NCBI GenBank assembly: GCA_020633995.1
Contig: JACKCO010000004.1
Coordinates: forward strand, 90,928 to 154,927
DNA from: Campylobacterota bacterium
Lineage (GTDB): Bacteria; Babelota; Babeliae; Babelales; RVW-14
Reading direction: 5' to 3'
DNA: 64,000 bases
Shown here: positions 642 through 64,000 of the stretch, in pieces
Position numbering within the stretch: position 1 is the first letter of the stretch
Layout: every line of letters starts with the position of its first letter
Notes under the pieces: generated by a model
What the model was told of the DNA's origin: nothing
Databases searched by the model: none
Seen by the model: only the letters and a program-made list of their open reading frames with translations
Translations under genes and position numbers: made by a program

Positions 642-672
642 TTACCGATTTTAATAAAGATTGGCATTAATG

Positions 673-727
673 GCTGCCTGTCTGTACACTGGGCATTTAT
701 GTGTACGGCAGGCAGCTTTTATTTTTT
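673..727 (+). terminator. rho-independent terminator (imperfect GC-rich stem plus T-run)
   Basis: gctgcctgtctgtacac ... gtgtacggcaggcagc, one small internal bulge, followed by ttttatttttt. Confidence 0.6.
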
Positions 728-744
728 AATGATGGTTTGGTACT

Positions 745-3041: not shown

Positions 3042-3046
3042 GAATT

Positions 3047-4211: not shown

Positions 4212-4247
4212 GCGATGCATCTCTCTCTTTGTTAAAAATGTACAATG

Positions 4248-9221: not shown

Positions 9222-9595
9222 CCAGCCTGAAACGCATTGGGCAAATAGTTGACGTGCCATGTTCCATTTTGACGAGTGACAATGGCAACATCGAATCGCA
9301 AAACCTTGTCGACAACACTTTGCTTCATGGCAAAGTGTTTGGCTGTTTTGATGATTTTGTTTTGTTTGCTTTTTGTAATGGTCTGCGTTATGTGAAAGTA
9401 CTCATTAAATCGTGTTTTAACTTCAATAAAAGCAACGACATCATCTTTTTGTGCAATGATGTCAATCTCACCAGCACGTGTTTGATAGTTACGCGCGATG
9501 ACTTGAAAGCCATTTGCCTCAAGATGCGTGCTGACAGCTTGTTCGCCAGCACGCCCAGTTTTTTGCTTAGCTAATGCTTGTGTGTTGTTTGTCAT
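9218..9595 (-). CDS. yraN: YraN-family (UPF0102) endonuclease-like protein
   Basis: 125 aa. G..GE..A..L...G..V.ARNY....GEIDIIA......AFIEVKTR pattern. Confidence 0.85.
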   Translation of the reverse strand: MTNNTQALAKQKTGRAGEQAVSTHLEANGFQVIARNYQTRAGEIDIIAQKDDVVAFIEVKTRFNEYFHITQTITKSKQNKIIKTAKHFAMKQSVVDKVLRFDVAIVTRQNGTWHVNYLPNAFQAG

Positions 9596-9653
9596 AACTC
9601 TGAATCAGTGCGAAATGTCATCGCCGATCAGCGCCGGAGATGACATTGTCAAA

Positions 9654-10535: not shown

Positions 10536-10811
10536 GATTGCTTCCCCGATTTTTAAATGTGGTTTGCGTGTAAAAAACGAACATAAAGGAGTTGTGATAG
10601 AGAAATACGTTTTATAGTTCACTTCTGTATCTGTGTGTAATGCTTACGATACCAATAAAAAAAAATTTTACCAGCAGGCAATTATCAATGATAGCGCTAG
10701 CGACAATTGCATTTCTTTGGTAGAATTCTCATTTTACAGTAGTTTCAATGTTTGTATGTATTTTAATTTATAATTTCTTATTGAATTTATAGGCAACGCA
10801 AGGAAAAATTT

Positions 10812-12419
10812 ATGGATAGAAAATTACTTCTGTCAATTGCACTTTCATTGGCGACGGTTGGTGCCATGCATTACTTTTTTGGTAAATTTTCTCAGGCACC
10901 TGAAAAAACGGGGCCTGTCAGCGTAGAACAGCAGGAGCAGACTGCAGTTTCAGGGCAGCCGATCAAAGTGCCAACAACTCAAGATTTGTATAAACCATTG
11001 GTATTAGATGTTTCGTTTGCCGCTGAGCGTAAGGCGGGGTTGGATGAGTCTAATACGGTTGTACAAACAGATTATTGCACTGCTACGTTTTCAAACTATG
11101 GTGCAATATTAACATCACTGGATTTTGATCAGCATACAGGTAGAAATAAAACTGCGCTAAAAACGGTCCAGGCAAAAGGAGTCCACGATGAGCAGCAACG
11201 TAAAAAAGGTTGTTTCTTGCTTGCGCTGGACGAGAACACTCCGTTTATTTATACGCTTAAACAACGACGTGAAACTGATGGTGGCATGGAGCTTGTTTTT
11301 CAAGCAGAAAATGAGTCGTGGGTTATTACAAAAGAGTACGTGTTTGTAAAAGATAGCTATCAGATTGATGTGATTGTTGGGTTTGAGCCAAAAGTTGTAC
11401 AGGCAAAGCCGGTCAAGCCACGCCTCTTTTTTGTAGCACCATTCATTAAGGAGATTGAGCAAGATAGTTTGAGCGTTGTTGCGTGGAATGAGTCAAAGCA
11501 AGCTATTGACAAGTCTGAAGCGGTTAAGGCCCAGGGGCTTGTGTGGCCATGGCAAGGAACAGATCCGTTGTTTGGGGTAGAGAACAAGTATTTTGTTCAT
11601 GCATTAATTAACGACCCAAGCAAATTTGTGCAGCGTGCCTATGTCAAGTATCTTAACGATCGCGAGGTGCTTCCTGTTCTTGAGGGTCCTGAAGTAACTG
11701 AAGGGCGTGAGTGGAGGATGTCATTTTACTTTGGGCCAAAGTTATTTCAGCATTTTGCAAAAGCTGATGCACGTCTTGAAGAGCTTTTGTCTTTTGGATG
11801 GTTGTCATGGCTGTGTAAGCTACTTCTTCAACTGTTGGAAATTATCTACAAGTATGTTGGCAACTTTGGTTTTGCTATCATCATTTTGACAATTTTGCTC
11901 AAGATTCCATTTACCCCATTTTCTATTTATGGACGTCGTAGAATGGAAGAATACCAAAAACATCAGCCGATTATTAACAAAATTAGACAAAAATATCGCA
12001 ATGATCTGAAGCTAGCGCATGAAGAGATTATGAAGTATCACAAGGATCACGGTCTCTCCCCAACCGCGCATATGGTTGGTTGTTTGCCACTGCTTGTGCA
12101 ATTGCCAATTTTGTTTGCACTCTATCGAGTCTTGAACAATTATTTGGCGCTTCATCAGGCACCATTTATTGGCTGGATTGTTGACCTGTCAAGCAAAGAC
12201 CCATACTACGTACTTCCAATCTTGATGGGTCTTTCCATGCTGGTTCAGCAGATTATTGCTCCCGTCAGTGATGAAAAACAACGTGCTGTCATGATGTTTA
12301 TGCCTGTGATTATGACTGTCGTGTTTTTGAACTTTCCAGCAGGTCTTGTCTTGTACTGGTTTGTTAACAACGTGTTGACAGTTGCTGAAGATTCTTTGAG
12401 AAAATATATCTTCGGGTAA
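10812..12419 (+). CDS. yidC: membrane protein insertase YidC
   Basis: 535 aa. N-terminal TM, large periplasmic domain, conserved core FGFAIIILTILLKIPFTPF...QPIINKIRQKY...GCLPLLVQLPILFALY. Confidence 0.92.
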   Translation: MDRKLLLSIALSLATVGAMHYFFGKFSQAPEKTGPVSVEQQEQTAVSGQPIKVPTTQDLYKPLVLDVSFAAERKAGLDESNTVVQTDYCTATFSNYGAILTSLDFDQHTGRNKTALKTVQAKGVHDEQQRKKGCFLLALDENTPFIYTLKQRRETDGGMELVFQAENESWVITKEYVFVKDSYQIDVIVGFEPKVVQAKPVKPRLFFVAPFIKEIEQDSLSVVAWNESKQAIDKSEAVKAQGLVWPWQGTDPLFGVENKYFVHALINDPSKFVQRAYVKYLNDREVLPVLEGPEVTEGREWRMSFYFGPKLFQHFAKADARLEELLSFGWLSWLCKLLLQLLEIIYKYVGNFGFAIIILTILLKIPFTPFSIYGRRRMEEYQKHQPIINKIRQKYRNDLKLAHEEIMKYHKDHGLSPTAHMVGCLPLLVQLPILFALYRVLNNYLALHQAPFIGWIVDLSSKDPYYVLPILMGLSMLVQQIIAPVSDEKQRAVMMFMPVIMTVVFLNFPAGLVLYWFVNNVLTVAEDSLRKYIFG

Positions 12420-12434
12420 TGGCAGGGAGGAGCC

Positions 12435-13034
12435 GTGTTTGGACGACTTCCTGCTCTGAGCAGGCTTATTAGGCAACTACAGAAAGTTCCCTTCTTGGCG
12501 TCTAAAAATATCGCCAAGGTTGCAGTTTATTTTTTGACGCGCGATGATAAAACAATCGATGAGCTCGTTGAATCGATCAAACAGGCGCGTGAACAAGTTA
12601 AATTATGTACGGCATGCTTTAACTGGACGGAGCAGCAGGGACTGTGCTCAATTTGTAGTTCGCCAAAGCGTGATGGCAAGGTTATATGTGTCGTTGAAAC
12701 ATGGCATGATTTATGGTCGATAGAAAATACCGGCGGTTACGAAGGGGTTTATCATATTCTGGGGGGATCACTGTGTCCGCTTGAGGGCATAGGTCCTGAA
12801 CATTTACATATTCAGCCTTTGCTCAAGCGTCTTGAAGGTGATGTTCAAGAAATTATTTTTGCAACCAACCCGACTCCCGAGGGTGAGGCGACTGCAAGCT
12901 TTATTTCTTCAAAAATACAGCATCTTCCATTGACGATCTCTAAGCTTGCAAGCGGTGTTCCTACCGGGTCAAGTTTGGAATATATGGATCGTATAACTAT
13001 AGCTAAGGCGCTTGCAGGTAGAAGGCCATACTAA
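12435..13034 (+). CDS. recR: recombination protein RecR
   Basis: 199 aa. HhH-like N-terminus, C4 zinc finger CTACFNW...CSIC, Toprim region VCVVE. Confidence 0.92.
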   Translation: MFGRLPALSRLIRQLQKVPFLASKNIAKVAVYFLTRDDKTIDELVESIKQAREQVKLCTACFNWTEQQGLCSICSSPKRDGKVICVVETWHDLWSIENTGGYEGVYHILGGSLCPLEGIGPEHLHIQPLLKRLEGDVQEIIFATNPTPEGEATASFISSKIQHLPLTISKLASGVPTGSSLEYMDRITIAKALAGRRPY

Positions 13035-46428: not shown

Positions 46429-49400
46429 ATGAGGAACATTCTTCGCTTGTCAACATTTCTATCTGTGCTTTTTATTGTTGGGTTGGGTCAGTCGCTTTTT
46501 TCAAATATAACCTTTGGTAGTCGTGAGTCTGCCATTAAGGTTCAATCGGGTACTACATTTAATATTTCATCTGACAATTTGTGCGTTGACGGTACTATTG
46601 ATGCTGCTAACGATGCAAGTATTACAGGCAAGGAATTTGCTTTCAAAGATGGTCGTTTGCGCAATAAGAATGTTGAACTCTGCATGACCGCACTGTATGA
46701 TCCAACAGGAACAGACATCATAACGCTTCCCGGCAAGGCTCACTGTGACGTAACACCTGGCACCGTGATTCAGGCAATGGTAGTTGAAGGTGTTGATAAT
46801 GAGCTCGAGGGACAGCCTCGTTTTAGTGGGCCGATTACTCTTGCCAACGACAAAACAGAGCTTTCAATCGGTATTCAAAACAAACTGAATAATGATATTG
46901 AGCTTAATGGCGGTAAATTGATTTTAATTGATAACCTTGGCCTTGTTGATGATGTTAAAATCAATGGTCCTGGTATTGTTGACTTAAATCAGCGTCAACT
47001 TTCACTTGGTAGCGTATATACCACACCGTGGGGAGGAGAACTATTTTTTGATAATGCAACTGACCTCGTGCTAACGGGTAACACGGTACTGACAGGGACC
47101 TGGACATTTACAGGTAAAACCGTTCTTAATGGTAACGGCTCAGTGCTTGATATGTCCGGTGGAGGTAAAATTATTGTTAAAGCTGGTGCAACGTTGTGCA
47201 TGAACGACATTCACGTTACTGGTCTTGCAGATGCAGCTGGCAAAGGCATGATTGTATTTGAAGACAAAACAAGTCAGCTTCGTATAGCGAATGCATCGTT
47301 CAAACTTGATGGTGATATGAGCTGGACCACCGGCGGCATGTATGTTGTTGGGCCTGCAACATTGATGCTTGGCAACTATGACTGGACTTTTGATACCATG
47401 GCTTCACTCACCGTAGACGGTGTACCATTGTGGCTTGATACGCTGTGTGCTGATTGCGCAGTTGGGTCAGGTCAATTGTTTGTTAATCTCCCATTGTTTG
47501 CAAATGGCTTATGGCAGCCAGATAATGTTACTGCAAATATTGCGGCCGGATACCTTTCATTAATTGATTGCGCAACAATTAAAGATACCATCAGCAAAGA
47601 GGAAGCCCGCTTTGACCAAAGTCTGTGCGAGTTGCTTAGTGGTTGCTTGACTGACAGTCTTAAGCTCAACTGTGGGATCTGTCTTTGTTCACATGATACC
47701 ATTAGAATTTGTGGGGATGTTGAAATTGACGGTCAAGGTAATGAGCTTTGCTTCCTATGTGGTGCAGACAATGCACAGCTTATTGTTGAAGCAGGTAACA
47801 CGCTCACACTTAAAAATATTGCATTAAACAACATTGGCCAAAATACCCTTGATATTCGCGATGGTGCATTGCTTAACATCGACGAAGATGTTTCATTTTG
47901 CCTGTGCGAAAACGTTACCTTCTCACAAGGTGCTATTCAGGTACTTAACTCGGCGGCTGGTTCAAACATTTTCACTATTAAAGGTGACAAGTGCAAACGA
48001 GTTTTTGATGTACGCCCACTTGTGCCATTGCTTCCATCAGGCGTTGCAAACCAATTGCTTTTCTTGGGCACTAACACCCTCAAGCTTGAAAATGCTGGTA
48101 TTGGTGGCTTTGCATCAATAAGCCATATTAATGGTCCGGTCATTGTTGGTGCCATTGCGCTTTCATGCCAAGCATGCGCATTTATTGATGTCGATACAGG
48201 TATGAACTTCTTTATTGAAGATGGCCGCAACGAAATGATTTTTGAGCAAGATGGTTTGATTATGTCTGGTAACATTTCATTTGGTGACTTCCCAGATAAT
48301 GAATTGTCAATGCGCTTCTTGCTTATTGATCCAATTGATCCAAACAACCCTCGCCGTGTTGGCGTAAAACCGGGTAACCCATTTGTAGAGTTTACTGGTG
48401 ATCCTGGAGTATTTGTGTTCTCACTTGACGGTCGTGCTCATCTGATTTTTGAAGACTTTTCAGTAACGACACGCCTTAGCAATGCAAATGGTATTGTGGT
48501 TGATGACAACTCGCTGCTTACAGCCAAGAAACTTGAAATTCTTGATAATCCAATTAAACAAGCATCTGGATTGTTCAGATTTGAAGCGATTGAAATAGCT
48601 GGTGCAAAAATTGACCCATCATTTGTTCGTAGCCCAGTAAGTGTGAGAAGTGCACTCAGATCAGAAGGTATCAAGTTAACAGCGCTGCACATTGCTCGTC
48701 AAAAAGAAAAAGAGCAGTTCTTAGCTTCACAGGCAGCAGCGATTGCAGCACTTGAACAAAATGGTGGACGTCCAAATAAACCAAACAAGCCAAGCAATAA
48801 TAATAAACCGCAAAAACCAGCGACAGCTAAACCATTAGCACCACGTCAAGATAAGCCAGAAGCGCCGGGCTCTCGTCCAGAGCAGCCTCCACGTCCACCA
48901 CAAAAGCCTGATCGCCCAGAAGCTCCGGGTCGCCCAGATCGTCCAAGTTCATCAGACAATGACCGTCCATCACGACCTACTCAAGTTCAAAACGGTGGAG
49001 GTAGTTCATCAAATGGACGTCGCCGTCGTAGTGAGCGTAGCTTGAATGATACAACTCGCGCAATGGGAATCCCAAGTCAGTGGGCAAGGAAACGTGGAGA
49101 TCTTGAAGATCCAGAGGATTTCTTCGTACCAGAAATATTTGACGAAATTATTGAAGGTAACCAAGGTGGTACTCTTCTTCTTAATCCTGCTGAAAATGAA
49201 CCGCTTAAAGGTGCTCTTGATGTGAGAAATAATGCTCGTATTGAGGAAGCATATACAGATCCCGACCAACCGTTTCATGTAGTTTTGAGTAATGAGTCAG
49301 AGTTAGAGCAAAGTAATTCTGGAGATATTGATCTCGAGCCTACACAGATAATCAGTGTGATCGGTAAACAGAATGTGGTAGAAGTTTGCCGTGACTTCAG

Positions 49401-50586: not shown

Positions 50587-52497
50587 ATGAACGCATTTAT
50601 TTTAGGAATGCTTGCCTCATTGCTCTTGTGTTGCAATGTGGAGCAGGCAAATGCCAACGCTCATGATGCCATGAGCGTTGCTAAAGAGCACGAAAAGGCT
50701 TTGGTAAAGCAGAAAAAAAATGCACAACGCGAAATGGAAAAAGCAAAAAAGACGACTGAAAAAGCACGCAAAAAGGAAATGAAGCGTGCGATGGAAGACA
50801 AGAAAAAACGCGTTGAAATGAAAAAGGCTGAGGACAAGAAAATTCGCAACAAGATGAAAAAGAAAGCCAAAAAAGATCGTGCTGCCAAAGAAGCTGATAA
50901 AAATCGTGTAGAGTACGAACGCCTTCGTGAAATGGATGGGCTTAAACAGGAAGAGAAAAAACAGCGTGCTCTGCAGGGACGTGATGAACGCGACATGCTT
51001 ATGAGCAATTGGGAAACTCATCGTGATAAAGTTGTCCTGCAAGAAAAAGAAAAAGGTAAGTATGCCTATCTTTATAAATCACCAGCATGGCCTATGCATG
51101 CACTCTTCTGGGAAAATAAAGCGTTTTTAAATGTGCAGTTTGACTACACCTACGCAACAGATGCTTATGGCTCTTGCCGTGGCGGTAGTGGGCATGATGT
51201 CTCAACACTTGAGTTTGGTCAGTGCCCAATCAAGCTCAAAGACATTTCTCTTGCCAGCAGGCTGCTTAAAGATGGGAAAGTTAATCCAGAGGCATGTAAC
51301 TTGGTTGTTGCAAACTTTCTGAAAGCGTTTGCGGATGAAACTTTGCGTTTTAATGGTAAGCAAGAGTCGATGAGTGTGTCGTTTGACTTTGCTCGTTACC
51401 TGCGTGGTCGTGATGTGGCCGTGGGTGTGCATGTGCCAATTGTGTACAAAAAGAATCGTCTTGAAATTGGTTTGCCAGTCAGTGGTCGTGAGCTTGAGTT
51501 TAATAGTTTCTTGGGATTGGGCAATGATCCGACAGCAACCTTAAATAACATTCCAATAGTTACTATACAGTCTCAATCAGGCCAGGCGATAGTTGTTCCT
51601 GCGAATACTGCTCTCAAACAACTTGTTAATCCAAATGTCTTGCAAGCTTTTAACGATTACATGATCGAAAAAATCTTGAAAGGCAAAGGCATTGAACACG
51701 TTGGTGGTTCATCTGGTGGTATTGGAGACATTGAGCTGTTTGGTAACATCCAACTCAGACCATGGTGGGCCGATAAAGTGATTTTTGGCTTACGTGTAGC
51801 AGTACCGACAGGCAAAGAAGCCGATCTGCACAGACTCTGGTCACCAGAGCTTGGCTGCGGTGGATTTACCACGGTTGGTGCCTACATGTCGGCACTGGTT
51901 AGCTATAAAAAGTTCCTGAATCCACATGTATTGATTGAAGGACGCTTTAGCAACTCAGCAAACGTTAAACGCCGTGTACCTCGCCGTGTTGTAACGCCTG
52001 ACAGTGCTGTCGCAACCGAAGATCTTGGCCATGACTTGATTTCTCTTGGTGGTTTTGTCAAATACAAAACAGATCCTCTTAGTGATGCTAACAAGTTTGA
52101 TGAATTTGATGCGACAGTTAATGGCTTTGGTGACAAGATTAACAAAATTCGCATGACCAAGGGTGCAGAATTTGAGTTCCGCCTCGGTAACATGATGGAA
52201 GCGTTCTTGCTTCGTCGTGGCTTTATGGACGTGTACTACAACTTTAGAGCCAAAGCTCAAGATGAAGTACGTCGTTGCCTTGAGCAAGTTGACACAGCTT
52301 GCTGTCAGCGCGTTGATGAACTTAACCTGTGCTATGTTTGGGATAACACACAGCGTCTTGAGCATAAGCTTGGTTTTGAGTATGCCTATCAGTTTGATCT
52401 GGACGCACGTCTGCGTGTCGGCTTAGAGTATACCTTTGCTGGTAAGAGCGTTCCAAAACTAGTGTTATTCACAACAGCGTTTAACTACTCATTTTAA
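50587..52497 (+). CDS. predicted outer-membrane beta-barrel protein P2 with Lys/Glu-rich N-terminal region
   Basis: AAGGAGAG SD. Signal peptide MNAFILGMLASLLLCCNVEQANA. ~130 aa of K/E/R-rich sequence. C-terminal ~450 aa have alternating polarity and end ...TTAFNYSF (terminal Phe). Confidence 0.7.
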   Translation: MNAFILGMLASLLLCCNVEQANANAHDAMSVAKEHEKALVKQKKNAQREMEKAKKTTEKARKKEMKRAMEDKKKRVEMKKAEDKKIRNKMKKKAKKDRAAKEADKNRVEYERLREMDGLKQEEKKQRALQGRDERDMLMSNWETHRDKVVLQEKEKGKYAYLYKSPAWPMHALFWENKAFLNVQFDYTYATDAYGSCRGGSGHDVSTLEFGQCPIKLKDISLASRLLKDGKVNPEACNLVVANFLKAFADETLRFNGKQESMSVSFDFARYLRGRDVAVGVHVPIVYKKNRLEIGLPVSGRELEFNSFLGLGNDPTATLNNIPIVTIQSQSGQAIVVPANTALKQLVNPNVLQAFNDYMIEKILKGKGIEHVGGSSGGIGDIELFGNIQLRPWWADKVIFGLRVAVPTGKEADLHRLWSPELGCGGFTTVGAYMSALVSYKKFLNPHVLIEGRFSNSANVKRRVPRRVVTPDSAVATEDLGHDLISLGGFVKYKTDPLSDANKFDEFDATVNGFGDKINKIRMTKGAEFEFRLGNMMEAFLLRRGFMDVYYNFRAKAQDEVRRCLEQVDTACCQRVDELNLCYVWDNTQRLEHKLGFEYAYQFDLDARLRVGLEYTFAGKSVPKLVLFTTAFNYSF

Positions 52498-52568: not shown

Positions 52569-54605
52569 ATGTTGAAAAAGCGTTGTTTCTTCTTGGCTTT
52601 ATGTTGTGTAGCCGCAGTGGGTTCTTTGCATGCTCGAACGTTGCACAGAGGTCGCGAGTCTGGCTATAACGTTGAGTCAACTTCAACCATGCGCATTGAA
52701 AATCGATTACGTGTTAATAGCGGAAGGCTAAGAGTTGGGGAGAAGGCAACGCTTGAAGGTGCAACAGGTGCGATTGTTGAATTTACCAATGGACGTTTTG
52801 TTGAAGAAAATCAAGTGGATGTTGAGCTGACGGGTACGCTTGATATTAATGCTAATGAGATTACTGTTGATGGGTCTAACTTCAACCCAGCTTCGGGACG
52901 GCCTCGTCAACGCATTCGCTTGAGTGGAAGTGCAAAGCTTGAGGGCCTTTCTGGGCGGTTTGATGAGTCTGTTAGTTTAGCAGATCCTGCCTCAGAACTT
53001 GATCTTAACCTTGCAACACCGATCAACACCAACATTAATCTTGCTGGAGGTAAAATTAATCTAACGGGCGATGCGCGCCTTTCTGATGGTCGTATGCCTC
53101 GAGGCGATGGTACCATTGATGCGCGTGGTAACAGACTGTCTACCGGGGGTCGAAATTTGACTCTAGGAGATAATCTTACGTTGAGAAATATGTCTGATTG
53201 GGACATTAACAGCAAGATTACCGTGACGGGTGAATTGACTTTTACCGGGAATGCAAAAATTAACGGTAATGGTAATGTGCTTGATCTTTCTCAGGGGGGA
53301 ACGATTAGAATCAGGGCTACAACAACGCTTGCTATGTGTAACATTACGCTTAAAGGCCTTGGTCTTGGAAAACTTATTTTTGAAGATCCAACATCACAAC
53401 TCTGTTTGTCTGACGCTCATGTGATGTTGAATCGTGACGTGACCTTTACAACCGGCGGTTTCTATATTGAAGGTCCAACAAAAATTATCACGAAAGATAA
53501 AATTTTGCGCTTTGATAGTGCAAGTTCTCTGACGGTTGATTGTCTAACGCTTGAATATGATACCGTTTCATTCACCGATAAACAAAATATTCGACCGTTT
53601 AATGCAGCGGCTGATCTAAATCAGTTGCATCTAACATTGCTTAATAATGCAACCATTCGCAGGGTAGCTTCTACCTCGGGCCCTGTAGTCATTGTTAATA
53701 ACTTTATTTTAGAGGGACTGCTTGAATTGCACCCAGATTTCAAGATTTTCTTCTGTGAAACGGCAACGCTTGACGGGGCAACGCATAATGTGTTCTTCTC
53801 GTGTGCTAAAGAGCCGCTTATTGTTGTTGATCCGGGCAAGATAGCGACGTTTGAAAATATTGCTTTCAAAGCATTTGCTCCACACCATATTAATGCGGGT
53901 GCTAAATTTATCTTTGCAGATAACACTAAAATTGAACTTGGCCAAAATAGTGAACTTGTTACGACATGGACCTTTACCGGGGCATGTGTGCTGAATGGTC
54001 GCGGTTTCTGCCTTGACATGAGTAGCACTGCTGCTGCGCTTGTGTTGCAGCAAGATAGAACTAACTTGCTGCTCGAAGATATCATTATTAAAGGTCTTTC
54101 TGCCAATAAAATTCGTTGTCTTGATAATAGCAGTAGTGTTTCCTTTAAAAATGTTACGTGGATTCAAGATGATTCAACAACATTCTCATTGGGTACGTTT
54201 GCAGTTATTAAGGATTTGGAACTTGTAGGTTCTTCAACGTTTGAATATTCAACGGTTGTTGGAAGTACCATTTTCGCACATGGAAAATTGAAACTCGATT
54301 GTGGTATGTCATTTAGCTATGCACCAAAACGTGCACATCGTGACTTAATTTACATGGAAAACAGTAGCGCTGTGCTTGAAATGAAAGGTGCGACGCTTGC
54401 ATCGACGGTGACTGGTCTACGCTTGACACGAGGAACCCTCATGCTTGATCACAAAAACAATACGATCAATGATGGTGCTGCGAGTGCTTCACAGTCAATA
54501 GCTTTTGGTAATGGGTCAGCAAGTGATGATTTGACTGTTAAAGTAATGCCGGGTGCAAATATTAATGTGCTTACTGGACGCCTTGTTTATGATAATACGA
54601 TTTAA
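52569..54605 (+). CDS. secreted modular protein P3 (module A + module B + shared C-terminal motif)
   Basis: Signal peptide MLKKRCFFLALCCVAAVGSLHA. N-half is homologous to P1/P6 (VTGELTFTGNAKINGNGNVLDLSQGG...). C-half is homologous to the P5 C-terminus (FSYAPKRAHRDLIYM...LRLTRGTLMLD...IAFGNG). Confidence 0.85.
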   Translation: MLKKRCFFLALCCVAAVGSLHARTLHRGRESGYNVESTSTMRIENRLRVNSGRLRVGEKATLEGATGAIVEFTNGRFVEENQVDVELTGTLDINANEITVDGSNFNPASGRPRQRIRLSGSAKLEGLSGRFDESVSLADPASELDLNLATPINTNINLAGGKINLTGDARLSDGRMPRGDGTIDARGNRLSTGGRNLTLGDNLTLRNMSDWDINSKITVTGELTFTGNAKINGNGNVLDLSQGGTIRIRATTTLAMCNITLKGLGLGKLIFEDPTSQLCLSDAHVMLNRDVTFTTGGFYIEGPTKIITKDKILRFDSASSLTVDCLTLEYDTVSFTDKQNIRPFNAAADLNQLHLTLLNNATIRRVASTSGPVVIVNNFILEGLLELHPDFKIFFCETATLDGATHNVFFSCAKEPLIVVDPGKIATFENIAFKAFAPHHINAGAKFIFADNTKIELGQNSELVTTWTFTGACVLNGRGFCLDMSSTAAALVLQQDRTNLLLEDIIIKGLSANKIRCLDNSSSVSFKNVTWIQDDSTTFSLGTFAVIKDLELVGSSTFEYSTVVGSTIFAHGKLKLDCGMSFSYAPKRAHRDLIYMENSSAVLEMKGATLASTVTGLRLTRGTLMLDHKNNTINDGAASASQSIAFGNGSASDDLTVKVMPGANINVLTGRLVYDNTI

Positions 54606-55719: not shown

Positions 55720-58700
55720 ATGAGATGTTACAAGAAGATTGTGTGCTTAATGCTTTTGGCAGCCAGTGGCATTGAGCATCATCTTGCGGGGGCAAAGCTA
55801 GATTTTGCAAGTCGTAGCTCGTCCATATTGCTAGGTAGTAATGGAAAGCAGTCTGTTTTGCGTGTTGGCGATCAGAATAAAGTACGTGGTTGGGAGCAAG
55901 AATCAATTGTACGAGCATCTGATCGAGGCCTTACTATTAGCAGAAGTCCTGGAGGGGCTCAAGTTTACGATCAAAATAGTGCACCAGCCTCAGTGAATGA
56001 TGAGTGGCACGTGCTAAGAGACTGGCAAATGGATCGTGCCTTTACTACAACCGATCCAGAACTTGTTTTACAAAACAGTGCTGCAATAGCTGCGCTTGCG
56101 CAGTGTTGCAAAAATAATAGTAATGCAATTGTAAAAAATGACGCGGATATTGCAAGTAACGCTTCTGACATCATTACCAATGCGGTTAATATCGCATCAA
56201 ATGCAACAAGTATTGCAAGTAACGCAATGGACATATCTGATAATCTTAAAGCAATTAGAAACAACAGTAATGCGCTTCTTGCATGTTGCAGAAATAATAG
56301 TAATGCAATTTTGGCTATTAATGCTGATCTGTCACAGGGTGTAGAGGACAACAGTAATGCCATTATTAAGCTTGAACAAGATGTAACCAACAATAGCAAT
56401 GCTTTGATTGCAAAGTGTGACGAAATTGAAGCGAATAGCAATGCGATTTTGGTTAACGTTCAAAATATCACGAATAACAGTAATGTTATCGTAGTTAATG
56501 TTCAAAATATAACAAATAATAGCAACACTATTGTTAAAAATTCTCAAAATATAATAAATAACAGTAATGCTATTGTTGTCAAATGTGAAGAGATCGAAGC
56601 AAATAGCAACGCGATTATTAAGCATGATCAAGATATCACAAATAATAGCAATGCCATTATTGCGGTAGTCGAGTGTTGCGAAGACAATAGCGAAGCGATT
56701 ATTAAGCTTGCACAAGATGTTGAAAATAATAGCAACGCGATCTTGAAGAATGTTCAGGATATCACCAACAACAGTAACACGCTGTTGGCATGTTGCCGTG
56801 ATAATAGCAATGCGATCATCAAGTTGACGAATGATGTCGAAAATAACAGCAACGCGATCTTGAAGAATGTTCAGGATATCACCAACAACAGTAACACACT
56901 GTTGGCATGCTGTCGTGATAATAGCAATGCGATTATCAAGTTGACGGATGATGTTGAAAATAACAGCAACGCGATCTTGAAGAATGTTCAGGATATCACC
57001 AATAACAGTAATACCTTGTTGGCATGTTGCCGCGATAACAGCAATGCGATTATCAAGTTGACGGATGATGTTGAGAACAACAGCAACGCGATCTTGAAGA
57101 ATGTTCAGGATATCACCAACAACAGCAACACATTGTTGGCATGCTGCCGTGATAACAGCAACGCGATTATCAAGTTGACACAAGATGTTGAAAACAACAG
57201 CAATGCGATATTGAAGAACGTTGAGGATATTAAAAATAACAGTAACACGCTGTTGGCATGCTGCCGTGATAACAGCAATGCGATTATCAAGTTGACACAA
57301 GATGTTGAAAACAACAGCAATGCGATATTGAAGAACGTTGAGGATATTAAAAATAACAGTAACACCTTGTTGGCTTGCTGCCGTGACAACAGCAATGCGA
57401 TTATCAAGCTGACACAAGATGTTGAAAATAACAGCAACGCGATCTTGAAGAATGTTCAAGATATCACCAACAACAGTAACACTTTGTTGGCATGCTGCCG
57501 TGATAACAGTAATGCGATTATCAAGTTGACACAGGATGTTGAAAACAACAGCAATGCGATCTTGAAGAATGTTCAAGATATCACCAACAACAGTAACACT
57601 TTGTTGGCATGCTGCCGTGATAACAGCAACGCAATTATCAAGCTGACGAATGATGTTGAAAACAACAGCAACGCGATCTTGAAGAACGTTCAGGATATCA
57701 CCAACAACAGCAACACATTGTTGGCATGCTGCCGTGATAACAGCAACGCAATTATTAAACATGACCAAGATATCACCAACAATAGTAATGCGATCATTGC
57801 ATTGGTAGAGTGTTGTGAAGATAATAGCGAAGCGATTCTCAAGCTTGTTGAAGATGTTAAGAATAACAGTAACACCTTGTTGGCTTGCTGCCGAGATAAT
57901 AGCAACGCGATTATCAAACATGATCAAGACATAACAAACAACAGTAATGCGATTGTTAAGAACGTTCAGGATATCACCAACAACAGTAATACCTTGTTGG
58001 CTTGTTGCCGCGATAACAGTAATGCAATTGTTAAGTTGACGCAAGATGTTGAAAATAACAGCAACGCGATCCTGAAGAAGTGTCAAGATATCGAAAATAA
58101 CAGCAATGCAATATTGAAGAATGTTGAAGATATTAGACACAACAGTGATGCAATTGTAAGTATTATGATTAACAATGAGTTGATCATACATAACAGTAAC
58201 GCAATTGTTGTACTTGCCGAGTGTTGTGAGGACAACAGCAATGCAATCATTAAACATGAGCAAGACATTAAGAACAACAGTAACACCTTGTTGGCCTGCT
58301 GCCGTAACAACAGTAATGCGATTATTAAGCACGAACAGGATATAAAAAACAACAGTAATGCAATTATTGCAGTGGTTGAGTGTTGCAAAGACAATAGTGA
58401 GGCGATCCTGAAATTGGTACAAGATGTTACAAACAACAGTAACACGTTGTTGGCCTGCTGCCGCGATAACAGCAATGCGATTATCAAATTGACGCAAGAT
58501 GTTGAAAACAACAGCAACGCGATTCTGAAAAACGTTGAAGATATCAAGAATAACAGCAATACGCTGTTGGCATGTTGCCGAGACAATAGCAATGCGATCA
58601 TCAGACACGATAAACAGCTAAATACCATTGATCATGGCCCAGAAAAAGTGTTTATCAAGCACAACACGCATCAAATCAACTTTGATCTGCATATTTCCTG

Positions 58701-59655
58701 TACACACTGCATGGTGATTGAACCAGAATGTCCAAAATCACCAAGTGATTTTGCAGCTGACGGGCAAAAGGCAGTCACTCGAAACGGTTACGCTTGTAAC
58801 ACGACTGTTACTATTAATGGTAATGGCCAGGCAATTAACCTTGCAAGCAAATGTGATGACATTATTCAGGTAGCAGATGGTGTACAAGTTATTTTTGAAA
58901 ACGTTGTGTTCAGACACTACCATGACCGTGTTTTTCAGCTTGGCGAAGGATCTGAAGTTGTCTTTGGTAACTGCACACGTCTTGAACTTGATGAAATGCA
59001 GAGCATGGAGATGGATTGGAAGTTTGACGGAGATACACAAATCCGTGGTTATGACAATATCTTGATGCTGGGTGAGTACAACATAAGAGTATTGCCAAGT
59101 GCAGAGCTGACGATGCACAACTTGTGGTTGTCAGGCATGCAGGATAACAATGTACGTTGCGAACATGACGATTCAAGCATTATTTACAAAGATTGCGACT
59201 TGTGGTTATCAGCAGACTACAGCTTTACAAAAGGCTCAATGCTGTTTGTCCAAGATGTAGTTTTACGCGGAACACATTGGTTTAACTACATGACAGACTT
59301 GACATCAACCATTAGCGGATGCTCAAGCTTGACCTTTGATAAGGGCGTTGTGTTTAACTATGAACCGCCTATTGCGAACAGAGACCTGATTGCAATGCAA
59401 GACATTACAGCAGTCTTAAAATGGGATGGCTGTGATATTTACTCAACACCAACTGGCTGGCGCCTAACCGTGGGTACGTTGTGTGTTGATCATATCAACA
59501 GACTCTTTGGTAGCGGTTCAAGCTTGTCACAAGCCATAGCGTTTGGTAATTGTGTCAATCAAGTAGTACTTGACGATCTTAATGTACAAGTGTTGCCTGG
59601 TGGATCAATTGATCTTCAATCAGGTGTGCTTGACTACGCAAACTTAGATACATAA
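55720..59655 (+). CDS. giant repeat protein P5: signal peptide, ~840 aa of NNSNAI/LLACCRD 39-aa repeats (predicted coiled-coil fibre), C-terminal module B + shared C-terminal motif
   Basis: AAGGAGAG SD. Signal peptide MRCYKKIVCLMLLAASGIEHHLAGA. The non-repeat C-terminal ~340 aa are homologous to the P3 C-half, which fixes strand and frame. Confidence 0.9.
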   Translation: MRCYKKIVCLMLLAASGIEHHLAGAKLDFASRSSSILLGSNGKQSVLRVGDQNKVRGWEQESIVRASDRGLTISRSPGGAQVYDQNSAPASVNDEWHVLRDWQMDRAFTTTDPELVLQNSAAIAALAQCCKNNSNAIVKNDADIASNASDIITNAVNIASNATSIASNAMDISDNLKAIRNNSNALLACCRNNSNAILAINADLSQGVEDNSNAIIKLEQDVTNNSNALIAKCDEIEANSNAILVNVQNITNNSNVIVVNVQNITNNSNTIVKNSQNIINNSNAIVVKCEEIEANSNAIIKHDQDITNNSNAIIAVVECCEDNSEAIIKLAQDVENNSNAILKNVQDITNNSNTLLACCRDNSNAIIKLTNDVENNSNAILKNVQDITNNSNTLLACCRDNSNAIIKLTDDVENNSNAILKNVQDITNNSNTLLACCRDNSNAIIKLTDDVENNSNAILKNVQDITNNSNTLLACCRDNSNAIIKLTQDVENNSNAILKNVEDIKNNSNTLLACCRDNSNAIIKLTQDVENNSNAILKNVEDIKNNSNTLLACCRDNSNAIIKLTQDVENNSNAILKNVQDITNNSNTLLACCRDNSNAIIKLTQDVENNSNAILKNVQDITNNSNTLLACCRDNSNAIIKLTNDVENNSNAILKNVQDITNNSNTLLACCRDNSNAIIKHDQDITNNSNAIIALVECCEDNSEAILKLVEDVKNNSNTLLACCRDNSNAIIKHDQDITNNSNAIVKNVQDITNNSNTLLACCRDNSNAIVKLTQDVENNSNAILKKCQDIENNSNAILKNVEDIRHNSDAIVSIMINNELIIHNSNAIVVLAECCEDNSNAIIKHEQDIKNNSNTLLACCRNNSNAIIKHEQDIKNNSNAIIAVVECCKDNSEAILKLVQDVTNNSNTLLACCRDNSNAIIKLTQDVENNSNAILKNVEDIKNNSNTLLACCRDNSNAIIRHDKQLNTIDHGPEKVFIKHNTHQINFDLHISCTHCMVIEPECPKSPSDFAADGQKAVTRNGYACNTTVTINGNGQAINLASKCDDIIQVADGVQVIFENVVFRHYHDRVFQLGEGSEVVFGNCTRLELDEMQSMEMDWKFDGDTQIRGYDNILMLGEYNIRVLPSAELTMHNLWLSGMQDNNVRCEHDDSSIIYKDCDLWLSADYSFTKGSMLFVQDVVLRGTHWFNYMTDLTSTISGCSSLTFDKGVVFNYEPPIANRDLIAMQDITAVLKWDGCDIYSTPTGWRLTVGTLCVDHINRLFGSGSSLSQAIAFGNCVNQVVLDDLNVQVLPGGSIDLQSGVLDYANLDT
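56074..58608 (+). repeat. in-frame degenerate 13/39-aa repeat region of P5
   Basis: NNSNA[IL] recurs about every 13 codons. 15 LLACCR and 4 ECC[EK]D Cys-Cys doublets counted in the translation. Confidence 0.95.
56716..57768 (+). repeat. 9 consecutive near-identical 117-bp (39-aa) tandem units
   Basis: Unit DVENNSNAILKNV[QE]DI[TK]NNSNTLLACCRDNSNAIIKLT[NDQ]. The period was checked from nucleotide offsets (56716, 56833, 56950 ...). Confidence 0.95.
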
Positions 59656-59665
59656 ACGCAAAAGC

Positions 59666-59697
59666 CTGAAGAGGAGGGAATCATCCCTCCTCTTCAG
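59666..59697 (+). terminator. perfect 14-bp hairpin between P5 and P6 (no T-run)
   Basis: ctgaagaggaggga-atca-tccctcctcttcag. Confidence 0.4.
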
Positions 59698-59773
59698 AAT
59701 ATGAGATGGTGTAAGAGCTTCGTTACGAGCGTTACGTAGAGGTGTCTACGCATTTTTTAAAAAAAGAGGAAGG

Positions 59774-62700
59774 ATGGGTGTGACTATACCTGCAAAACGT
59801 GCAATAAAAGTTTTATTGGCGATAGCTTGTACACTGTCAAGTAGTCTCTTTGCAGCAGTTGAATTTGGGAGCTTAGCGTCTGCTATTAATGTTAGACGCA
59901 GCGCACAGCTGCAGTCTTTTGCGAATCCATTTTTGGTGCGAGAGGGGAGTGTCAATGCACTTGAGAGTGGCGTAGTTTCAGGTCCCAAACTTATGTTTGA
60001 TGGAGGTATTTTCGCCGATAATAACAGTAGTGCAGAATTTACTGGTGATCTGGCGTTCACTCAAAATAATGTTATTGAAGTTTTTGACTCAGCATCAAAT
60101 GTAACTATTGTTGATCAAACAACTATTGATAGAAACATTATTTTAAATGACGGGACGTTGCGTCTTGATAATAAATTAAGTCTTGCCGATGGTGTTACTA
60201 TTGGTGCTTCTGGTCGTGTGCAGCTTAATGGTCATAGGCTAGAATTTGGAGGAAGAGATTTAGGTTTGACGAGCTCAATCGTCTGGGAAAATGCAGATGA
60301 TTTGGTCATGCATAGCAATATTGCTTTGACGGGGTTGTGGACGTTTACCGGCCCAGCCCACATTATCGGAAATGGCAATTGCCTTGACCTGACCAGTGGT
60401 GGGACGCTGTGGATACGCAGTAATACCGATGTATGGTTGAGCGATATTAAAATTCGCGGCTTGGGAACGGGGTTTATTGTTTTTGAAAATAAAACGTCTC
60501 GTTTGTATCTTTCGCAGGTTGAAGTAGAACTTGATTCATCGTTTACGGTAACAACCGGTGGTATTTACGCAAAAGGTCCTGCTAATATCGTAACAAAAAA
60601 TCACTTCTTAGCGTTTGATCAGAGTGGATCGTTAACCGTTGATGGGATACGCCTTACTTATGACACGTTGACGTTTGATGACCGTTCAAATATAGTGCCG
60701 CTCGACGCTGGGCAAGATCCAGGTGGGGTCAACTTAGCACTTGTAAATAATGGCGTTATCACAAACAACAATGTGGCACAGGCAAGTCAGCTTGCTATTC
60801 AAAACAGTAATGCAATTCTTGTTAAATGCCAAGAGATTGAAAATAACAGTAATGCAATTCTCGCGATTAGCTCTGGCGGGGTCCAGCTTGCAATAGAAAA
60901 CAGTAATGCGATTGTTGCAAAGTGCCAGGACATAGAAAATAACAGCAATGCAATTCTGAAGAACGTTCAGAATATAACGAATAACAGCAACACGATTTTG
61001 GTTAATGTTCAAAATATAACTAACAATAGCAATACGTTGATCAAGAAATGTCAGGACATTGAAAACAACAGCAATGCAATTTTAAAGAATGTTCAAGATA
61101 TAACGAATAACAGTAACACCTTGTTGGCGTGTTGCCGAGACAACAGTAACGCAATTATCAAATTAACGAATGATGTTGAAAATAACAGCAATGCGATTTT
61201 GAAGAATGTTCAGGACATAACAAATAACAGCAACACGCTTCTTGCATGCTGCCGAGACAATAGCAACGCGATTATCAAGCATGACCAAGATATAACAAAT
61301 AATAGTAATGCGATTATTGCACTTGATGTGGCAAGTGGTGGTGCTGCCGAACTTGCAGAGCAGAATAGCAATGCCATCCTTGCAAAATGTCTTGAAATAG
61401 AGGCCAACAGCAACGCAATCTTGAAGAACGTTCAAGACATAACAAACAATAGTAATACGTTGTTAGCCTGTTGCCGAGATAACAGCAACGCAATTATCAA
61501 GTTGACGCAGGATGTTGAAAACAACAGCAACGCGATTTTGAAGAATGTTCAGGACATAACAAATAACAGCAACACGCTTCTTGCATGCTGTCGTGACAAC
61601 AGTAATGCTATTCTTGCCCTGAGTGCTGGTCTTACTGATGGGGTGACGAATAATAGTAATGCGATTATTAAGCTTGTTCAGGATGTGACGAACAATAGTA
61701 ATACGCTGTTGGCGTGTTGCCGAGACAACAGTAACGCAATTATCAAATTAACGAATGATGTTGAAAATAACAGCAATGCGATTTTGAAGAATGTTCAGGA
61801 CATAACGAACAATAGCAATACGTTGCTTGCCTGCTGCCGAGACAACAGCAACGCAATTATCAAACATGACCAAGATATAACAAACAACAGTAATGCTATT
61901 GTTGCACTTGATCAAGGCCTTTCTCAGGCAATCGAAAACAACAGTAATGCGATTATTAAGCTTGTTCAGGATGTGACGAACAACAGTAACACGCTGTTGG
62001 CATGTTGCCGTGATAATAGCAATGCAATTATCAAATTAACGAATGATGTTGAAAATAACAGCAATGCGATTTTGAAGAATGTTCAGGACATAACGAACAA
62101 TAGCAATACGTTGCTTGCCTGCTGCCGAGACAACAGCAACGCAATTATCAAATTAACGAATGATGTTGAAAACAACAGCAATGCGATTTTGAAGAATGTT
62201 CAAGACATAACGAACAATAGCAATGCATTGCTTGCTTGTTGCCGCAACAATAGCAATGCGATTATCAAGATTGTTCAAGATGTTAAAAACAACAGCAATG
62301 GAATATTGGCAAATGAAGCTGACATTATGAAGAACGCAGCAGACATTTTGACCAACGCCGTCAACATCGCAACGAATGCAACAAACATAGCTGCGAATGC
62401 CGTTGATATAACCAATAATGCTATGGATATTGCTTCCAATGTTGACAACATCAGGCACAATAGCGATGCAATTATTGGTAAATGTCAGGATATTGAAAAT
62501 AATAGCAATGCAATATTGGCAATAGGTGATTGTTGCATAAACAACAGTCAGCGTATTACTAATAACAGCAATGCAATTATCAAAAAATGTGAAGAGATTA
62601 AACAGAATAGTAACGCAATATTAGCCAATGAGGCTGATATTATGAAGAATTCAGCCGATATTTTGACCAACGCAGTCAATATTGCAACGAATGCAACAAA

Positions 62701-64000
62701 CATAGCTGCAAATGCTGTTGATATAACCAATAATGCTATGGATATTGCTTCCAACGCCGACAACATCAGGCACAATAGCGATGCAATTATTGGTAAATGT
62801 CAGGATATTGAGAATAATAGCAACGCGATATTGGCGATAGGTGATTGCTGTGAACAAAATAGTGGCGCGATTATTAAACTGACGCAAGATGTTGAAAATA
62901 ATAGCAATGCAATACTGGCAAAGTGCTTAGAAATTGAAGCTAACAGTAACGCAATCTTGAAAAACGTCCAGGATATTACTAATAATAGCAATACCTTGCT
63001 AGCCTGCTGTCGTGATAATAGCAACGCAATTATCAAACATGATCAGGATATAACAAATAACAGTAATGCAATTGTTGTGCTTGCCGAGTGCTGTGAAGAC
63101 AACAGTGAGGCAATTCTCAAGTTGACTCAAGACGTTGCCAACAACAGTAACACGCTGTTGGCTTGCTGTCGTGATAATAGTAATGCAATTATCAAGCATG
63201 ATCAGGATATAACAAACAATAGTAATGCGATTGTTGTGCTTGCCGAATGTTGTGAAGACAATAGTGAGGCAATCCTCAAGTTAGTCCAAGATGTCACCAA
63301 CAACAGCAACACTTTGTTGGCATGCTGCCGTGATAATAGCAATGCGATTATCAAGCTAACGGATGATGTTGAAAATAACAGCAACGCGATTTTGAAGAAC
63401 GTGCAGGATATCACTAACAACAGCAACACCTTGTTGGCATGCTGTCGTGATAACAGCAATGCAATTATCAAGCTGACGAATGATGTTGAAAACAACAGCA
63501 ACGCGATCTTGAAGAACGTTCAGGATATTACTAACAACAGCAACACCTTGTTGGCATGCTGCCGTGATAACAGCAACGCGATTATCAAATTGACACAAGA
63601 TGTTGAAAATAACAGCAATGCGATCTTGAAGAACGTGCAGGATATTACTAACAACAGCAACACCTTGTTGGCATGCTGCCGTGATAACAGTAACGCGATT
63701 ATCAAGTTGACAGAAGATGTTGAGAACAACAGCAACGCGATCTTGAAGAACGTTGAGGACATTAAGAACAACAGTAATACCTTGTTGGCATGTTGCCGCG
63801 ATAACAGCAATGCGATTATCAAGTTGACACAAGATGTTGAAAACAACAGTAATGCGATCTTGAAGAACGTTGAGGACATTAAGAACAACAGTAACACTTT
63901 GTTGGCATGCTGCCGTGATAACAGTAATGCGATTATCAAGTTGACGCAGGATGTTGAAAACAACAGCAATGCGATCTTGAAGAACGTTGAGGACATTAAG
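59774..64000 (+). CDS. giant repeat protein P6 (3' end outside the window): signal peptide, N-terminal module A, then more than 1,070 aa of the same repeat family
   Basis: Not in the ORF track because there is no stop before the window edge. GAGGAAGG SD before the ATG at 59774. 4,227 nt (1,409 codons) are open to nt 64000. Signal peptide MGVTIPAKRAIKVLLAIACTLSSSLFAA. ALTGLWTFTGPAHIIGNGNCLDLTSGG is homologous to P1/P3. Confidence 0.88.
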   Translation, partial: MGVTIPAKRAIKVLLAIACTLSSSLFAAVEFGSLASAINVRRSAQLQSFANPFLVREGSVNALESGVVSGPKLMFDGGIFADNNSSAEFTGDLAFTQNNVIEVFDSASNVTIVDQTTIDRNIILNDGTLRLDNKLSLADGVTIGASGRVQLNGHRLEFGGRDLGLTSSIVWENADDLVMHSNIALTGLWTFTGPAHIIGNGNCLDLTSGGTLWIRSNTDVWLSDIKIRGLGTGFIVFENKTSRLYLSQVEVELDSSFTVTTGGIYAKGPANIVTKNHFLAFDQSGSLTVDGIRLTYDTLTFDDRSNIVPLDAGQDPGGVNLALVNNGVITNNNVAQASQLAIQNSNAILVKCQEIENNSNAILAISSGGVQLAIENSNAIVAKCQDIENNSNAILKNVQNITNNSNTILVNVQNITNNSNTLIKKCQDIENNSNAILKNVQDITNNSNTLLACCRDNSNAIIKLTNDVENNSNAILKNVQDITNNSNTLLACCRDNSNAIIKHDQDITNNSNAIIALDVASGGAAELAEQNSNAILAKCLEIEANSNAILKNVQDITNNSNTLLACCRDNSNAIIKLTQDVENNSNAILKNVQDITNNSNTLLACCRDNSNAILALSAGLTDGVTNNSNAIIKLVQDVTNNSNTLLACCRDNSNAIIKLTNDVENNSNAILKNVQDITNNSNTLLACCRDNSNAIIKHDQDITNNSNAIVALDQGLSQAIENNSNAIIKLVQDVTNNSNTLLACCRDNSNAIIKLTNDVENNSNAILKNVQDITNNSNTLLACCRDNSNAIIKLTNDVENNSNAILKNVQDITNNSNALLACCRNNSNAIIKIVQDVKNNSNGILANEADIMKNAADILTNAVNIATNATNIAANAVDITNNAMDIASNVDNIRHNSDAIIGKCQDIENNSNAILAIGDCCINNSQRITNNSNAIIKKCEEIKQNSNAILANEADIMKNSADILTNAVNIATNATNIAANAVDITNNAMDIASNADNIRHNSDAIIGKCQDIENNSNAILAIGDCCEQNSGAIIKLTQDVENNSNAILAKCLEIEANSNAILKNVQDITNNSNTLLACCRDNSNAIIKHDQDITNNSNAIVVLAECCEDNSEAILKLTQDVANNSNTLLACCRDNSNAIIKHDQDITNNSNAIVVLAECCEDNSEAILKLVQDVTNNSNTLLACCRDNSNAIIKLTDDVENNSNAILKNVQDITNNSNTLLACCRDNSNAIIKLTNDVENNSNAILKNVQDITNNSNTLLACCRDNSNAIIKLTQDVENNSNAILKNVQDITNNSNTLLACCRDNSNAIIKLTEDVENNSNAILKNVEDIKNNSNTLLACCRDNSNAIIKLTQDVENNSNAILKNVEDIKNNSNTLLACCRDNSNAIIKLTQDVENNSNAILKNVEDIK
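60789..64000 (+). repeat. in-frame NNSNAI/LLACCRD repeat region of P6, continuing past the window
   Basis: Same 39-aa unit as P5, interspersed with variant units and heptad (xDIxxNA) stretches. The last ~700 nt are regular 117-bp units. Confidence 0.95.
62309..62851 (+). repeat. 315-bp-offset internal duplication inside P6 (two 228-bp copies: 62309-62536 and 62624-62851)
   Basis: Both copies encode ANEADIMKN[AS]ADILTNAVNIATNATNIAANAVDITNNAMDIASN[VA]DNIRHNSDAIIGKCQDIENNSNAILAIGDCC. Confidence 0.9.

Follow-up and report, generated by a model that had tools for sequence, protein, structure and literature searches.

The stalks found in trimeric autotransporter adhesins (TAAs) such as YadA, BadA and SadA form long surface-fiber coiled coils that mix heptads with hendecads, carry Ile or Val at core position a and Asn at d followed by Ser or Thr at e, and stand behind an N-terminal head (PMC13580157). 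Asn at d (N@d) is the commonest polar core residue of TAA stalks, where N@d layers with Ser/Thr at e bind chloride, and in one extreme Brucella case, the TAA stalk of Brucella microti BMI_I1862, it is found in 37 of 40 heptads (PMC13580157). Here we describe P6, a gene that starts at position 59774 of a 64,000-nucleotide (nt) stretch of bacterial DNA (the window; contig JACKCO010000004.1, positions 90,928 to 154,927). Its product shares these features with TAAs at the level of its sequence, including both the N@d polar layers and the heptad/hendecad mix. The head belongs to an unrelated family built from two modules, A and B, and we consider it probable that P6 encodes a Sec-exported fiber of this undescribed family of secreted tandem beta-helix proteins, whose C-terminus most likely consists of a conserved junction followed by module B.

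Tetrabrachion and other hendecad-containing surface-layer stalks are likewise very long rods with 11-residue repeats that project domains from the cell; the tetrabrachion stalk is four-helical and right-handed with a largely hydrophobic core, whereas heptads dominate in P6 (39 residues per 11 turns) and the core is rich in Asn. Classical autotransporters, the chlamydial polymorphic membrane proteins (Pmp) and the two-partner secretion (TPS) proteins of the TpsA type (HxuA, FHA) resemble the P6 family as multi-paralogue, Sec-dependent, beta-helix-type proteins of host-associated bacteria, and Hbp, TibA and HxuA appear among the weak structural matches described below. Phage tailspikes and fibers, exemplified by the HK620 tailspike and the P22 gp26 needle, also combine a beta-helix head with a coiled-coil rod containing polar core layers, and HK620 is another of the weak structural matches.

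Reading frame and coding signal of P6

Translation from the ATG at 59774 yields 1,409 codons with zero stops up to the window edge (59774..64000, + strand), and the C-terminus of the protein lies beyond it. The initial annotation, made from the letters of the window, had described this uninterrupted frame, had attributed its absence from the list of open reading frames (ORFs) to its running off the window, and had noted an N-terminal module homologous to the nearby P1 and P3 as well as repeats in common with the neighboring P5. Each of these points was borne out: the frame is free of stops, the ORF-listing program skips frames that leave the window, and the homologies and the 117-nt unit, encoding 39 amino acids (aa), that the P6 stalk shares with P5 are documented in the following sections.

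A ribosome-binding site, AGAGGAAGG, can be read from the sequence directly 5' of the ATG (59765..59773, +). Judged by eye, residues 1-27 (59774..59854, +) resemble a Sec signal peptide, since the start, MGVTIPAKRAIKVLLAIACTLSSSLFA followed by AVEFGS, shows the n-h-c layout of a K/R-rich beginning, a hydrophobic core and an LFA/A site. The motif FGSxxSAIxV comes next and also opens mature P1. The remainder of the visible protein comprises module A (residues ~95-335; 60056..60778, +), which by homology to P3 and P1, the P3 model and weak Foldseek matches is predicted to be a beta-helix-type head, and a stalk of at least 1,067 aa (60800..64000, +), with repeats that run from residue ~343 to the window edge.

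To judge from its repeats, this frame has been maintained as a protein. Among the 20 canonical 39-aa units of P5 and P6, the pairwise differences at codon positions 1, 2 and 3 amount to 655, 233 and 2836, respectively, and 2,483 codon differences are synonymous compared with 569 that are non-synonymous. Because the units differ mostly at third positions and synonymously, we conclude that the P6 frame is under purifying selection, the peptide having been kept while the DNA drifted.

Exact matches extend to 68 nt at most between P5 and P6 and to 129 nt at most inside P6, and the best collinear blastn alignments between the two arrays are 84-89% identical, with no privileged register. With exact matches this short and arrays this diverged, we see no tract that would force an assembly collapse or a chimera. 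The assembly artifact that the initial annotation had raised as a caveat is therefore improbable, the sequence giving no sign of one.

Antisense ORFs of up to 758 aa also lie inside the repeat arrays (56332-58608, 63356-63832 and 63520-63996, all on the minus strand). We regard them as by-products of the repeat composition because the codon-position statistics favor the plus frame.

Modules A and B define an uncatalogued family

Residues ~95-335 of P6 align to P3 with 42% identity over 229 aa (E 3e-52), and the N-terminal part of P6 aligns to P1 with 31% identity over 378 aa (E 2e-39), which delimits a module A of about 240 aa. Against the family's hidden Markov model (HMM) of module A, the P6 module scores E 3e-126. 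The C-terminal globule of P5, in turn, matches the C-terminal half of P3, which we term module B (32% identity, E 2e-41). When the N-terminal module of P6 and the C-terminal module of P5 were compared directly by BLASTP, no match was obtained (E 0.26); a profile-profile comparison with hhalign, on the other hand, related A to B with 98.5% probability (E 3.6e-15, 109-column core), and HMM cross-hits between the two ranged from 1e-7 to 1e-17 throughout the family. As judged by these profiles, A and B are paralogues so distant that only profile comparisons relate them.

An AlphaFold2 model of P3, built from a 6-sequence alignment (mean predicted local distance difference test score, pLDDT, 79.6), contains two confident all-beta domains and a disordered linker at residues 331-371. 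Searching this model against the PDB with Foldseek returned weak matches, nearly all of them right-handed beta-helix or beta-solenoid proteins (PL6 alginate lyases, HxuA, HK620 tailspike, Hbp, TibA and PfbA). The assignment of A and B as putative beta-helix modules draws on the consistency of these weak matches together with the all-beta character of the P3 model.

Searches of modules A and B against Pfam, NCBIfam, PHROGs and the PDB sequences gave no meaningful match. A word-indexed search with the P6 N-terminus found two distant relatives only, scans of genome and metagenome contigs recovered relatives at 32-36% identity only, and the family came to light in an exhaustive profile search covering 1.84 billion representative proteins, with 2,436 members at E<=1e-3 and 1,574 at E<=1e-30. 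The A/B family is large (~2,400 representative clusters), uncatalogued, and absent from Pfam and NCBIfam. Many of its members are long (A-B)n arrays, and module B ends in the conserved motif ..TGxRLxxGxL...FGxG...L.Y.N. The closest database relative of P6 module A is P0001 (49% identity), which itself consists of A plus repeats. Two further members stand out for their composition: P0011 (4,562 aa) carries seven A-B units in tandem, and P0077 has, at aa 560-1100, a beta-propeller-like run of SPDGKYLAVG-type repeats ahead of its NSNAI repeats.

Order of the modules in P6 and its relatives

The initial annotation had regarded P6 as an inverted counterpart of P5, with related globular modules at opposite ends of the same stalk type, and had proposed either module shuffling or fibers of opposite polarity. 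The inverted architecture and the opposite polarity find no support: the globule of P6 is an A and that of P5 a B, without a match in direct comparison, and in the relatives examined A comes before B wherever both flank a stalk or form an A-B unit. Module shuffling, in contrast, is supported, as the same parts recur across relatives in several combinations, namely A-B, A-stalk-B, another N-terminus followed by stalk and B, A with a short stalk and a P1-like C-terminus, and long (A-B)n arrays.

The relatives compared came from a syntenic TM6/Dependentiae MAG (metagenome-assembled genome) and several metagenome contigs. Proteins in which A is joined to B without a stalk occur frequently in the related loci L001-L006. 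The best genomic match to P6 module A (L004 9875-12067, 730 aa) has A, one NNSNAI repeat (NNSNAIVWLDQQMQTIDHGP), the sequence QMQTIDHGP and B. An intact A-stalk-B gene is present at L002 6918-9272 (784 aa), with a ~120-aa stalk that includes LLFCCRNNSN, and the same layout, split by frameshifts, is found at L001 8439-12601. The database proteins P0066 and P0067 join A to stalks of 742 and 414 aa, respectively, made of NSNALLYCCRT... repeats, which lead through ...WL(N/D)xQLxTIDHGP into B. A QLxTIDHGP junction between stalk and B is thus conserved in relatives (L002, L004, P0066 and P0067), and P5 has QLNTIDHGP (58615-58641, +) before its own B. Stalk length in the intact A-stalk-B proteins ranges from 1 to ~740 residues. 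The stalks sit where the P3 model has its disordered linker.

Given the A-stalk-B order of the relatives and the position of the P3 linker, P6 is best read as signal peptide, A, expanded stalk and, beyond the window, B; the visible part would then most likely amount to no more than the N-terminal two-thirds of such a protein. In a neighbor-joining tree of A modules, calculated without bootstrap and hence weak evidence, the A modules that cluster with P6-A each have a B behind them. By the same comparison of parts, P5 is a variant with a different N-terminus of ~110 aa in place of A. An origin of P5 from a copy of P6 by loss of A was rejected, since the first ~110 aa of P5 have no similarity to P6 except at the start of the stalk.

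The long-read-style metagenome contig L001 differs from the window in two respects. Its stalked genes (137-4916 and 8439-12601) are broken into several ORFs by frameshifts in the repeats, and the repeats are pure 11-mers (NSNALLYGDRT), unlike the mix of 7 and 11 residues seen here.

The stalk has the periodicity and composition of a coiled coil

We cut the stalks of P5 and P6 at their invariant xNSNA anchors and counted the resulting segments. Most measure 14 aa (n=89) or 11 aa (n=32) and the rest 7, 18, 21, 49 or 56 aa, the single exception to sums of 7 and 11 being one 17-aa segment in P5. The 39-aa super-repeat follows as 7+7+11+7+7, corresponding to 11 turns at 3.545 residues per turn, and hydrophobic residues recur with a dominant period of 3.55 (P6) or 3.535 (P5), a signal that stands more than 40 standard deviations above shuffled sequences.

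In P6, heptad position a is Ile or Val in 109 of 116 cases (94%) and position d is Asn in 81 of 116 (70%), with Ser at e after the invariant Asn. The 11-mers, N-S-N-T-L-L-A-C-C-R-(D/N), place Leu, Cys, Cys and Asn at hendecad positions a, d, e and h, so that each hendecad contains a vicinal Cys-Cys. Over its 1,067 visible residues, the P6 stalk lacks Pro and aromatic residues altogether (0 each) and contains 13 Gly, 22% Asn, 21 Cys-Cys pairs and many K/E/D/Q. Together, periodicity, core composition and segment lengths are those typical of a long and almost straight coiled coil, and the P6 stalk reads as predicted alpha-helix. If the stalks are helical, a rise of 0.15 nm per residue would give ~160 nm for the visible part of P6 and ~125 nm for the P5 stalk (837 aa; 56113-58623, +).

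Pfam matches of the stalk to fvmYukDl_N, DUF948, Nucleoprot-TPR and Fib_alpha were rejected as repeat or coiled-coil bias; no single stretch passes the threshold in any of them, save one or two for Fib_alpha (E ~0.01). Two copies of a 56-aa all-heptad segment (..ANEADIMKNAADILTNAVNIATNATNIAANAVDITNNAMDIASN..) lie at 62288..62770 (+) inside a 315-nt duplication, and a 49-aa relative of this segment stands at the start of the P5 stalk.

Comparison with described systems

In spite of the shared stalk features, P5 and P6 differ from TAAs in several ways. Their heads are predicted single-chain, beta-helix-like modules of an unrelated family, the second head, B, is C-terminal, every P6 hendecad contains Cys-Cys, and the visible P6 stalk reaches ~150 heptad equivalents. 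Pfam (E<=0.1) detected no YadA_anchor in the complete P5, in P1, P3 and P4, or in visible P6, and P5 and the stalked relatives end in module B, not in a TAA anchor. Likewise, Pfam and NCBIfam gave no YadA-like head, Hep_Hag, HIM or neck motif in P5 or visible P6.

Classical autotransporters, Pmp and TpsA proteins share no sequence similarity with the family. There was no Pfam match in P1-P6 to the 12-strand autotransporter barrel or to the Pmp GGA(I/L/V)/FxxN repeats, and no Pfam or NCBIfam match to a TPS domain or a POTRA-bearing Omp85-type partner in P1, P3, P6 or the neighboring P2; accordingly, no TpsB-like partner was detected. Unlike phage fibers, the genes lie in a chromosomal housekeeping context with no phage genes, A and B have no PHROG match, and the proteins carry apparent signal peptides. 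We therefore rejected a phage origin as well as membership of P6 in the TAAs, the Pmp/autotransporter group or the TPS systems, the defining features that were tested being absent, and rate P6 as an adhesin-like fibrous protein that combines a coiled coil with a head from an undescribed family.

Source organism and proposed role of P6

The dehydrogenase of the locus and P1-P4 (45267-55678) are identical to NCBI proteins MCB9493369-MCB9493373 (locus tags H6679_03785-03800), and the identical ldh is also present in the read set SRR12358676. The source is a metagenome-assembled genome (MAG) that NCBI labels "Epsilonproteobacteria/Campylobacterota bacterium". The order mdh-P1-P2-P3 is syntenic with L004, from candidate division TM6 bacterium GW2011_GWF2_37_49, where further A/B proteins follow, and the lactate/malate dehydrogenase is 61% identical between the two loci. 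On the basis of this synteny and the dehydrogenase, we infer a Dependentiae-like organism and consider the NCBI label doubtful.

Dependentiae (TM6) are widespread, intracellular, obligate parasites of protists, and to our knowledge the mode in which they attach to their hosts has not been established. Genome analyses have noted type II secretion and possible pili in this group and no adhesins (PMC4776705; PMC6561590), and type II secretion, with GspD in two copies, is generally encoded in TM6 genomes (PMC4776705). A secreted beta-helix family of ~2,400 clusters, in which some members carry TAA-like stalks on the 100-nm scale, is an obvious candidate for the missing attachment apparatus.

In the mechanism that we propose, the prototype of the family would be signal peptide, A, short flexible linker and B, as in P3, and in P6 the linker would have been replaced by an expanded coiled-coil stalk, with a QLxTIDHGP junction and module B most likely at the C-terminus. 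After export through Sec, the stalk would assemble as a parallel, probably trimeric coiled coil, the core of which would alternate Ile/Val layers with Asn layers of the anion-binding N@d type, as in TAA stalks. The Cys-Cys pairs of the 11-residue segments would occupy core-flanking positions and could link neighboring chains by disulfides. The product would be a stiff rod of at least 160 nm that keeps the head or heads A apart from the head or heads B; one end would stay with the bacterium while the other reaches a ligand on the eukaryotic host, making P6 a long-range tether or adhesin. The repeat arrays that P5 and P6 share at 85-90% DNA identity would allow stalk length and module combinations to change by recombination. 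Taken with this explanation as a whole, P6 is in our estimation rather likely to be a genuine gene for a very long secreted fibrous protein.

A more far-reaching version, which we offer tentatively and with more doubt than belief, would make P5 and P6 representatives of an anchor-less, Dependentiae-specific fiber class, that is, disulfide-stapled, anion-filled trimers of at least 125-160 nm with heads at both ends, exported by a route other than type V, tethering the bacterium to its protist host and tuned in length by recombination between the paralogous repeat arrays. The distal head of such a fiber may be A and the proximal one B, or vice versa.

For coiled-coil studies, a natural stalk that exceeds 1,000 residues, has Asn at 70% of its d positions and carries Cys-Cys in every hendecad would also be an extreme test case. 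The interest of the locus thus resides in the family, the extreme stalk and the missing public records rather than in an inverted architecture.

Alternative explanations

Several points weigh against the view of P6 as a Sec-exported A-stalk-B fiber. Its C-terminus lies outside the window, and in L003 (1,350 aa), L005 and L006 module A and 3-4 NSNA repeats are joined to a P1-like C-terminus, with only a fragmentary match to B; a different ending is therefore conceivable for P6 as well. P6 has no record in the public protein collection, although P1-P4 do, which could mean annotation as a pseudogene or a break further downstream. Foldseek returned nothing below 1e-3 for the two-domain P3 model against the PDB, the head matches all being sub-significant; the coiled coil of the stalk was read from sequence, and the trimer, the anion binding, the inter-chain disulfides from Cys-Cys and the surface location are putative. 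Pfam and NCBIfam identified no outer-membrane translocator or anchor domain, and the AlphaFold2 model of P2, the possible partner discussed below, was unusable (pLDDT 37). Finally, the taxonomic placement is based on synteny and one conserved enzyme, against the NCBI label.

The layout of L003, L005 and L006 forms the starting point for one alternative, that P6 is a real fiber gene but ends in a long P1-like C-terminal region, or without a globular module, and so has its head first and no second head. The window itself gives no sign of the stalk ending at 64000, which would suit such a protein. We nevertheless think this unlikely: P6 is built from the repeat units of P5, where the stalk leads into the TIDHGP junction and B; B also closes every long-stalk relative seen (P0066, P0067, L002 and L001), and it follows the A modules nearest to P6-A. 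That P6 is a pseudogene or an assembly product (a chimera, a mis-joined array, or a gene with a frameshift beyond the window) would agree with the missing records of P6 and probably P5 beside those of the adjacent P1-P4, with the origin of the sequence from a MAG contig in which tandem 117-nt repeats are difficult to assemble, and with the related long-read contig L001, where such genes are split by frameshifts. It is hard to reconcile with 1,409 open codons, with repeat copies that differ mainly at synonymous third positions, with arrays that share no long exact match and no privileged register, and with a unique 5' kilobase that has its own ribosome-binding site, apparent signal peptide and conserved module, and we judge it quite improbable.

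YadA-type heads are built from 14-residue NSVAIG repeats, and the 14-residue spacing and NSNAI motif of P6 bear a superficial likeness to them; some relatives also have Gly and Tyr in their repeats (NSNALLYGDRT). On such grounds P6 could be taken for one long beta-solenoid adhesin with beta-roll repeats. However, no match to Hep_Hag, the YadA head or any TAA domain was obtained with Pfam even at E 0.1, the stalk contains 13 Gly and 0 Pro per 1,067 aa along with many K/E/D/Q, with a single exception the segment lengths add up from 7 and 11, and the dominant hydrophobic period is 3.55 instead of ~2. We give this reading very little credence, less than any other considered here, and retain the coiled-coil fiber as the preferred one.

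Neighboring genes and public annotation

P5 (1,311 aa; 55720..59655, +) consists of a signal peptide, an unrelated N-terminus of ~110 aa, the stalk, the junction and module B (58783-59652, +). Neither of the two start sites tried for P5 led to a record in the public protein collection. Public annotation thus seems to have dropped the genes of the locus that are richest in repeats, or to have marked them as pseudogenes, which means that what are likely the most interesting members of the locus are missing from the public protein set, certainly so for P6 and, with two starts tested, for P5. Between the P5 stop (59655) and the P6 start lies a terminator-like, 15-bp GC-rich inverted repeat (59665..59698); it is perfect, has a terminator-like score on the minus strand, and is without a T-run on the plus strand.

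Upstream of P5, P4 (339 aa as annotated, MCB9493373.1; 54659..55678, +) comprises a signal peptide and a B-like module. P3 (678 aa, MCB9493372.1; 52569..54605, +), the stalk-less prototype, has a signal peptide, module A (aa ~130-365; 52956-53663, +), the disordered linker and module B (aa ~394-676; 53748-54596, +), both modules being assigned by homology. P1 (1,376 aa as annotated, MCB9493370.1; 46429..50559, +) starts with a signal peptide and module A (46828-47532, +, by homology), followed by a Pro-rich linker and a long, distinct C-terminal region with conserved counterparts in L003 and L004. At aa ~770-870 of P1 (~48700-49000), a Pro/Lys/Arg-rich low-complexity linker (..PNKPNKPSNNNKPQKPATAKPLAPRQDKPEAPGSRPEQPPRPPQKPDRPEAPGRPDRP..) separates the beta-helix part from this C-terminal region.

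P2 (636 aa, MCB9493371.1; 50587..52497, +) has a Lys/Glu-rich, predicted helical N-terminus and a beta-rich C-terminal part ending in ..YSF. Similar proteins of 630-650 aa stand beside A/B genes in three loci (window 50587-52497, L004 5476-7419 and L003 173-2068); these relatives are 35-36% identical and share a signal peptide, a Lys/Glu-rich predicted helix of ~150 aa and a beta-rich C-terminal part ending in ..SF. Searches of P2 against Pfam, NCBIfam and the PDB gave no match. From its sequence features and its recurrent position, P2 may be a candidate outer-membrane partner of the fiber proteins.

Chromosomal housekeeping genes (ldh, rpoA and rplQ) lie upstream of the locus, and the whole 64-kb window contains zero tRNA genes and zero Rfam families at the gathering threshold. 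The only other contig of the same organism that was found is L008, a 3.6-kb Logan contig that carries ldh and the start of P1.

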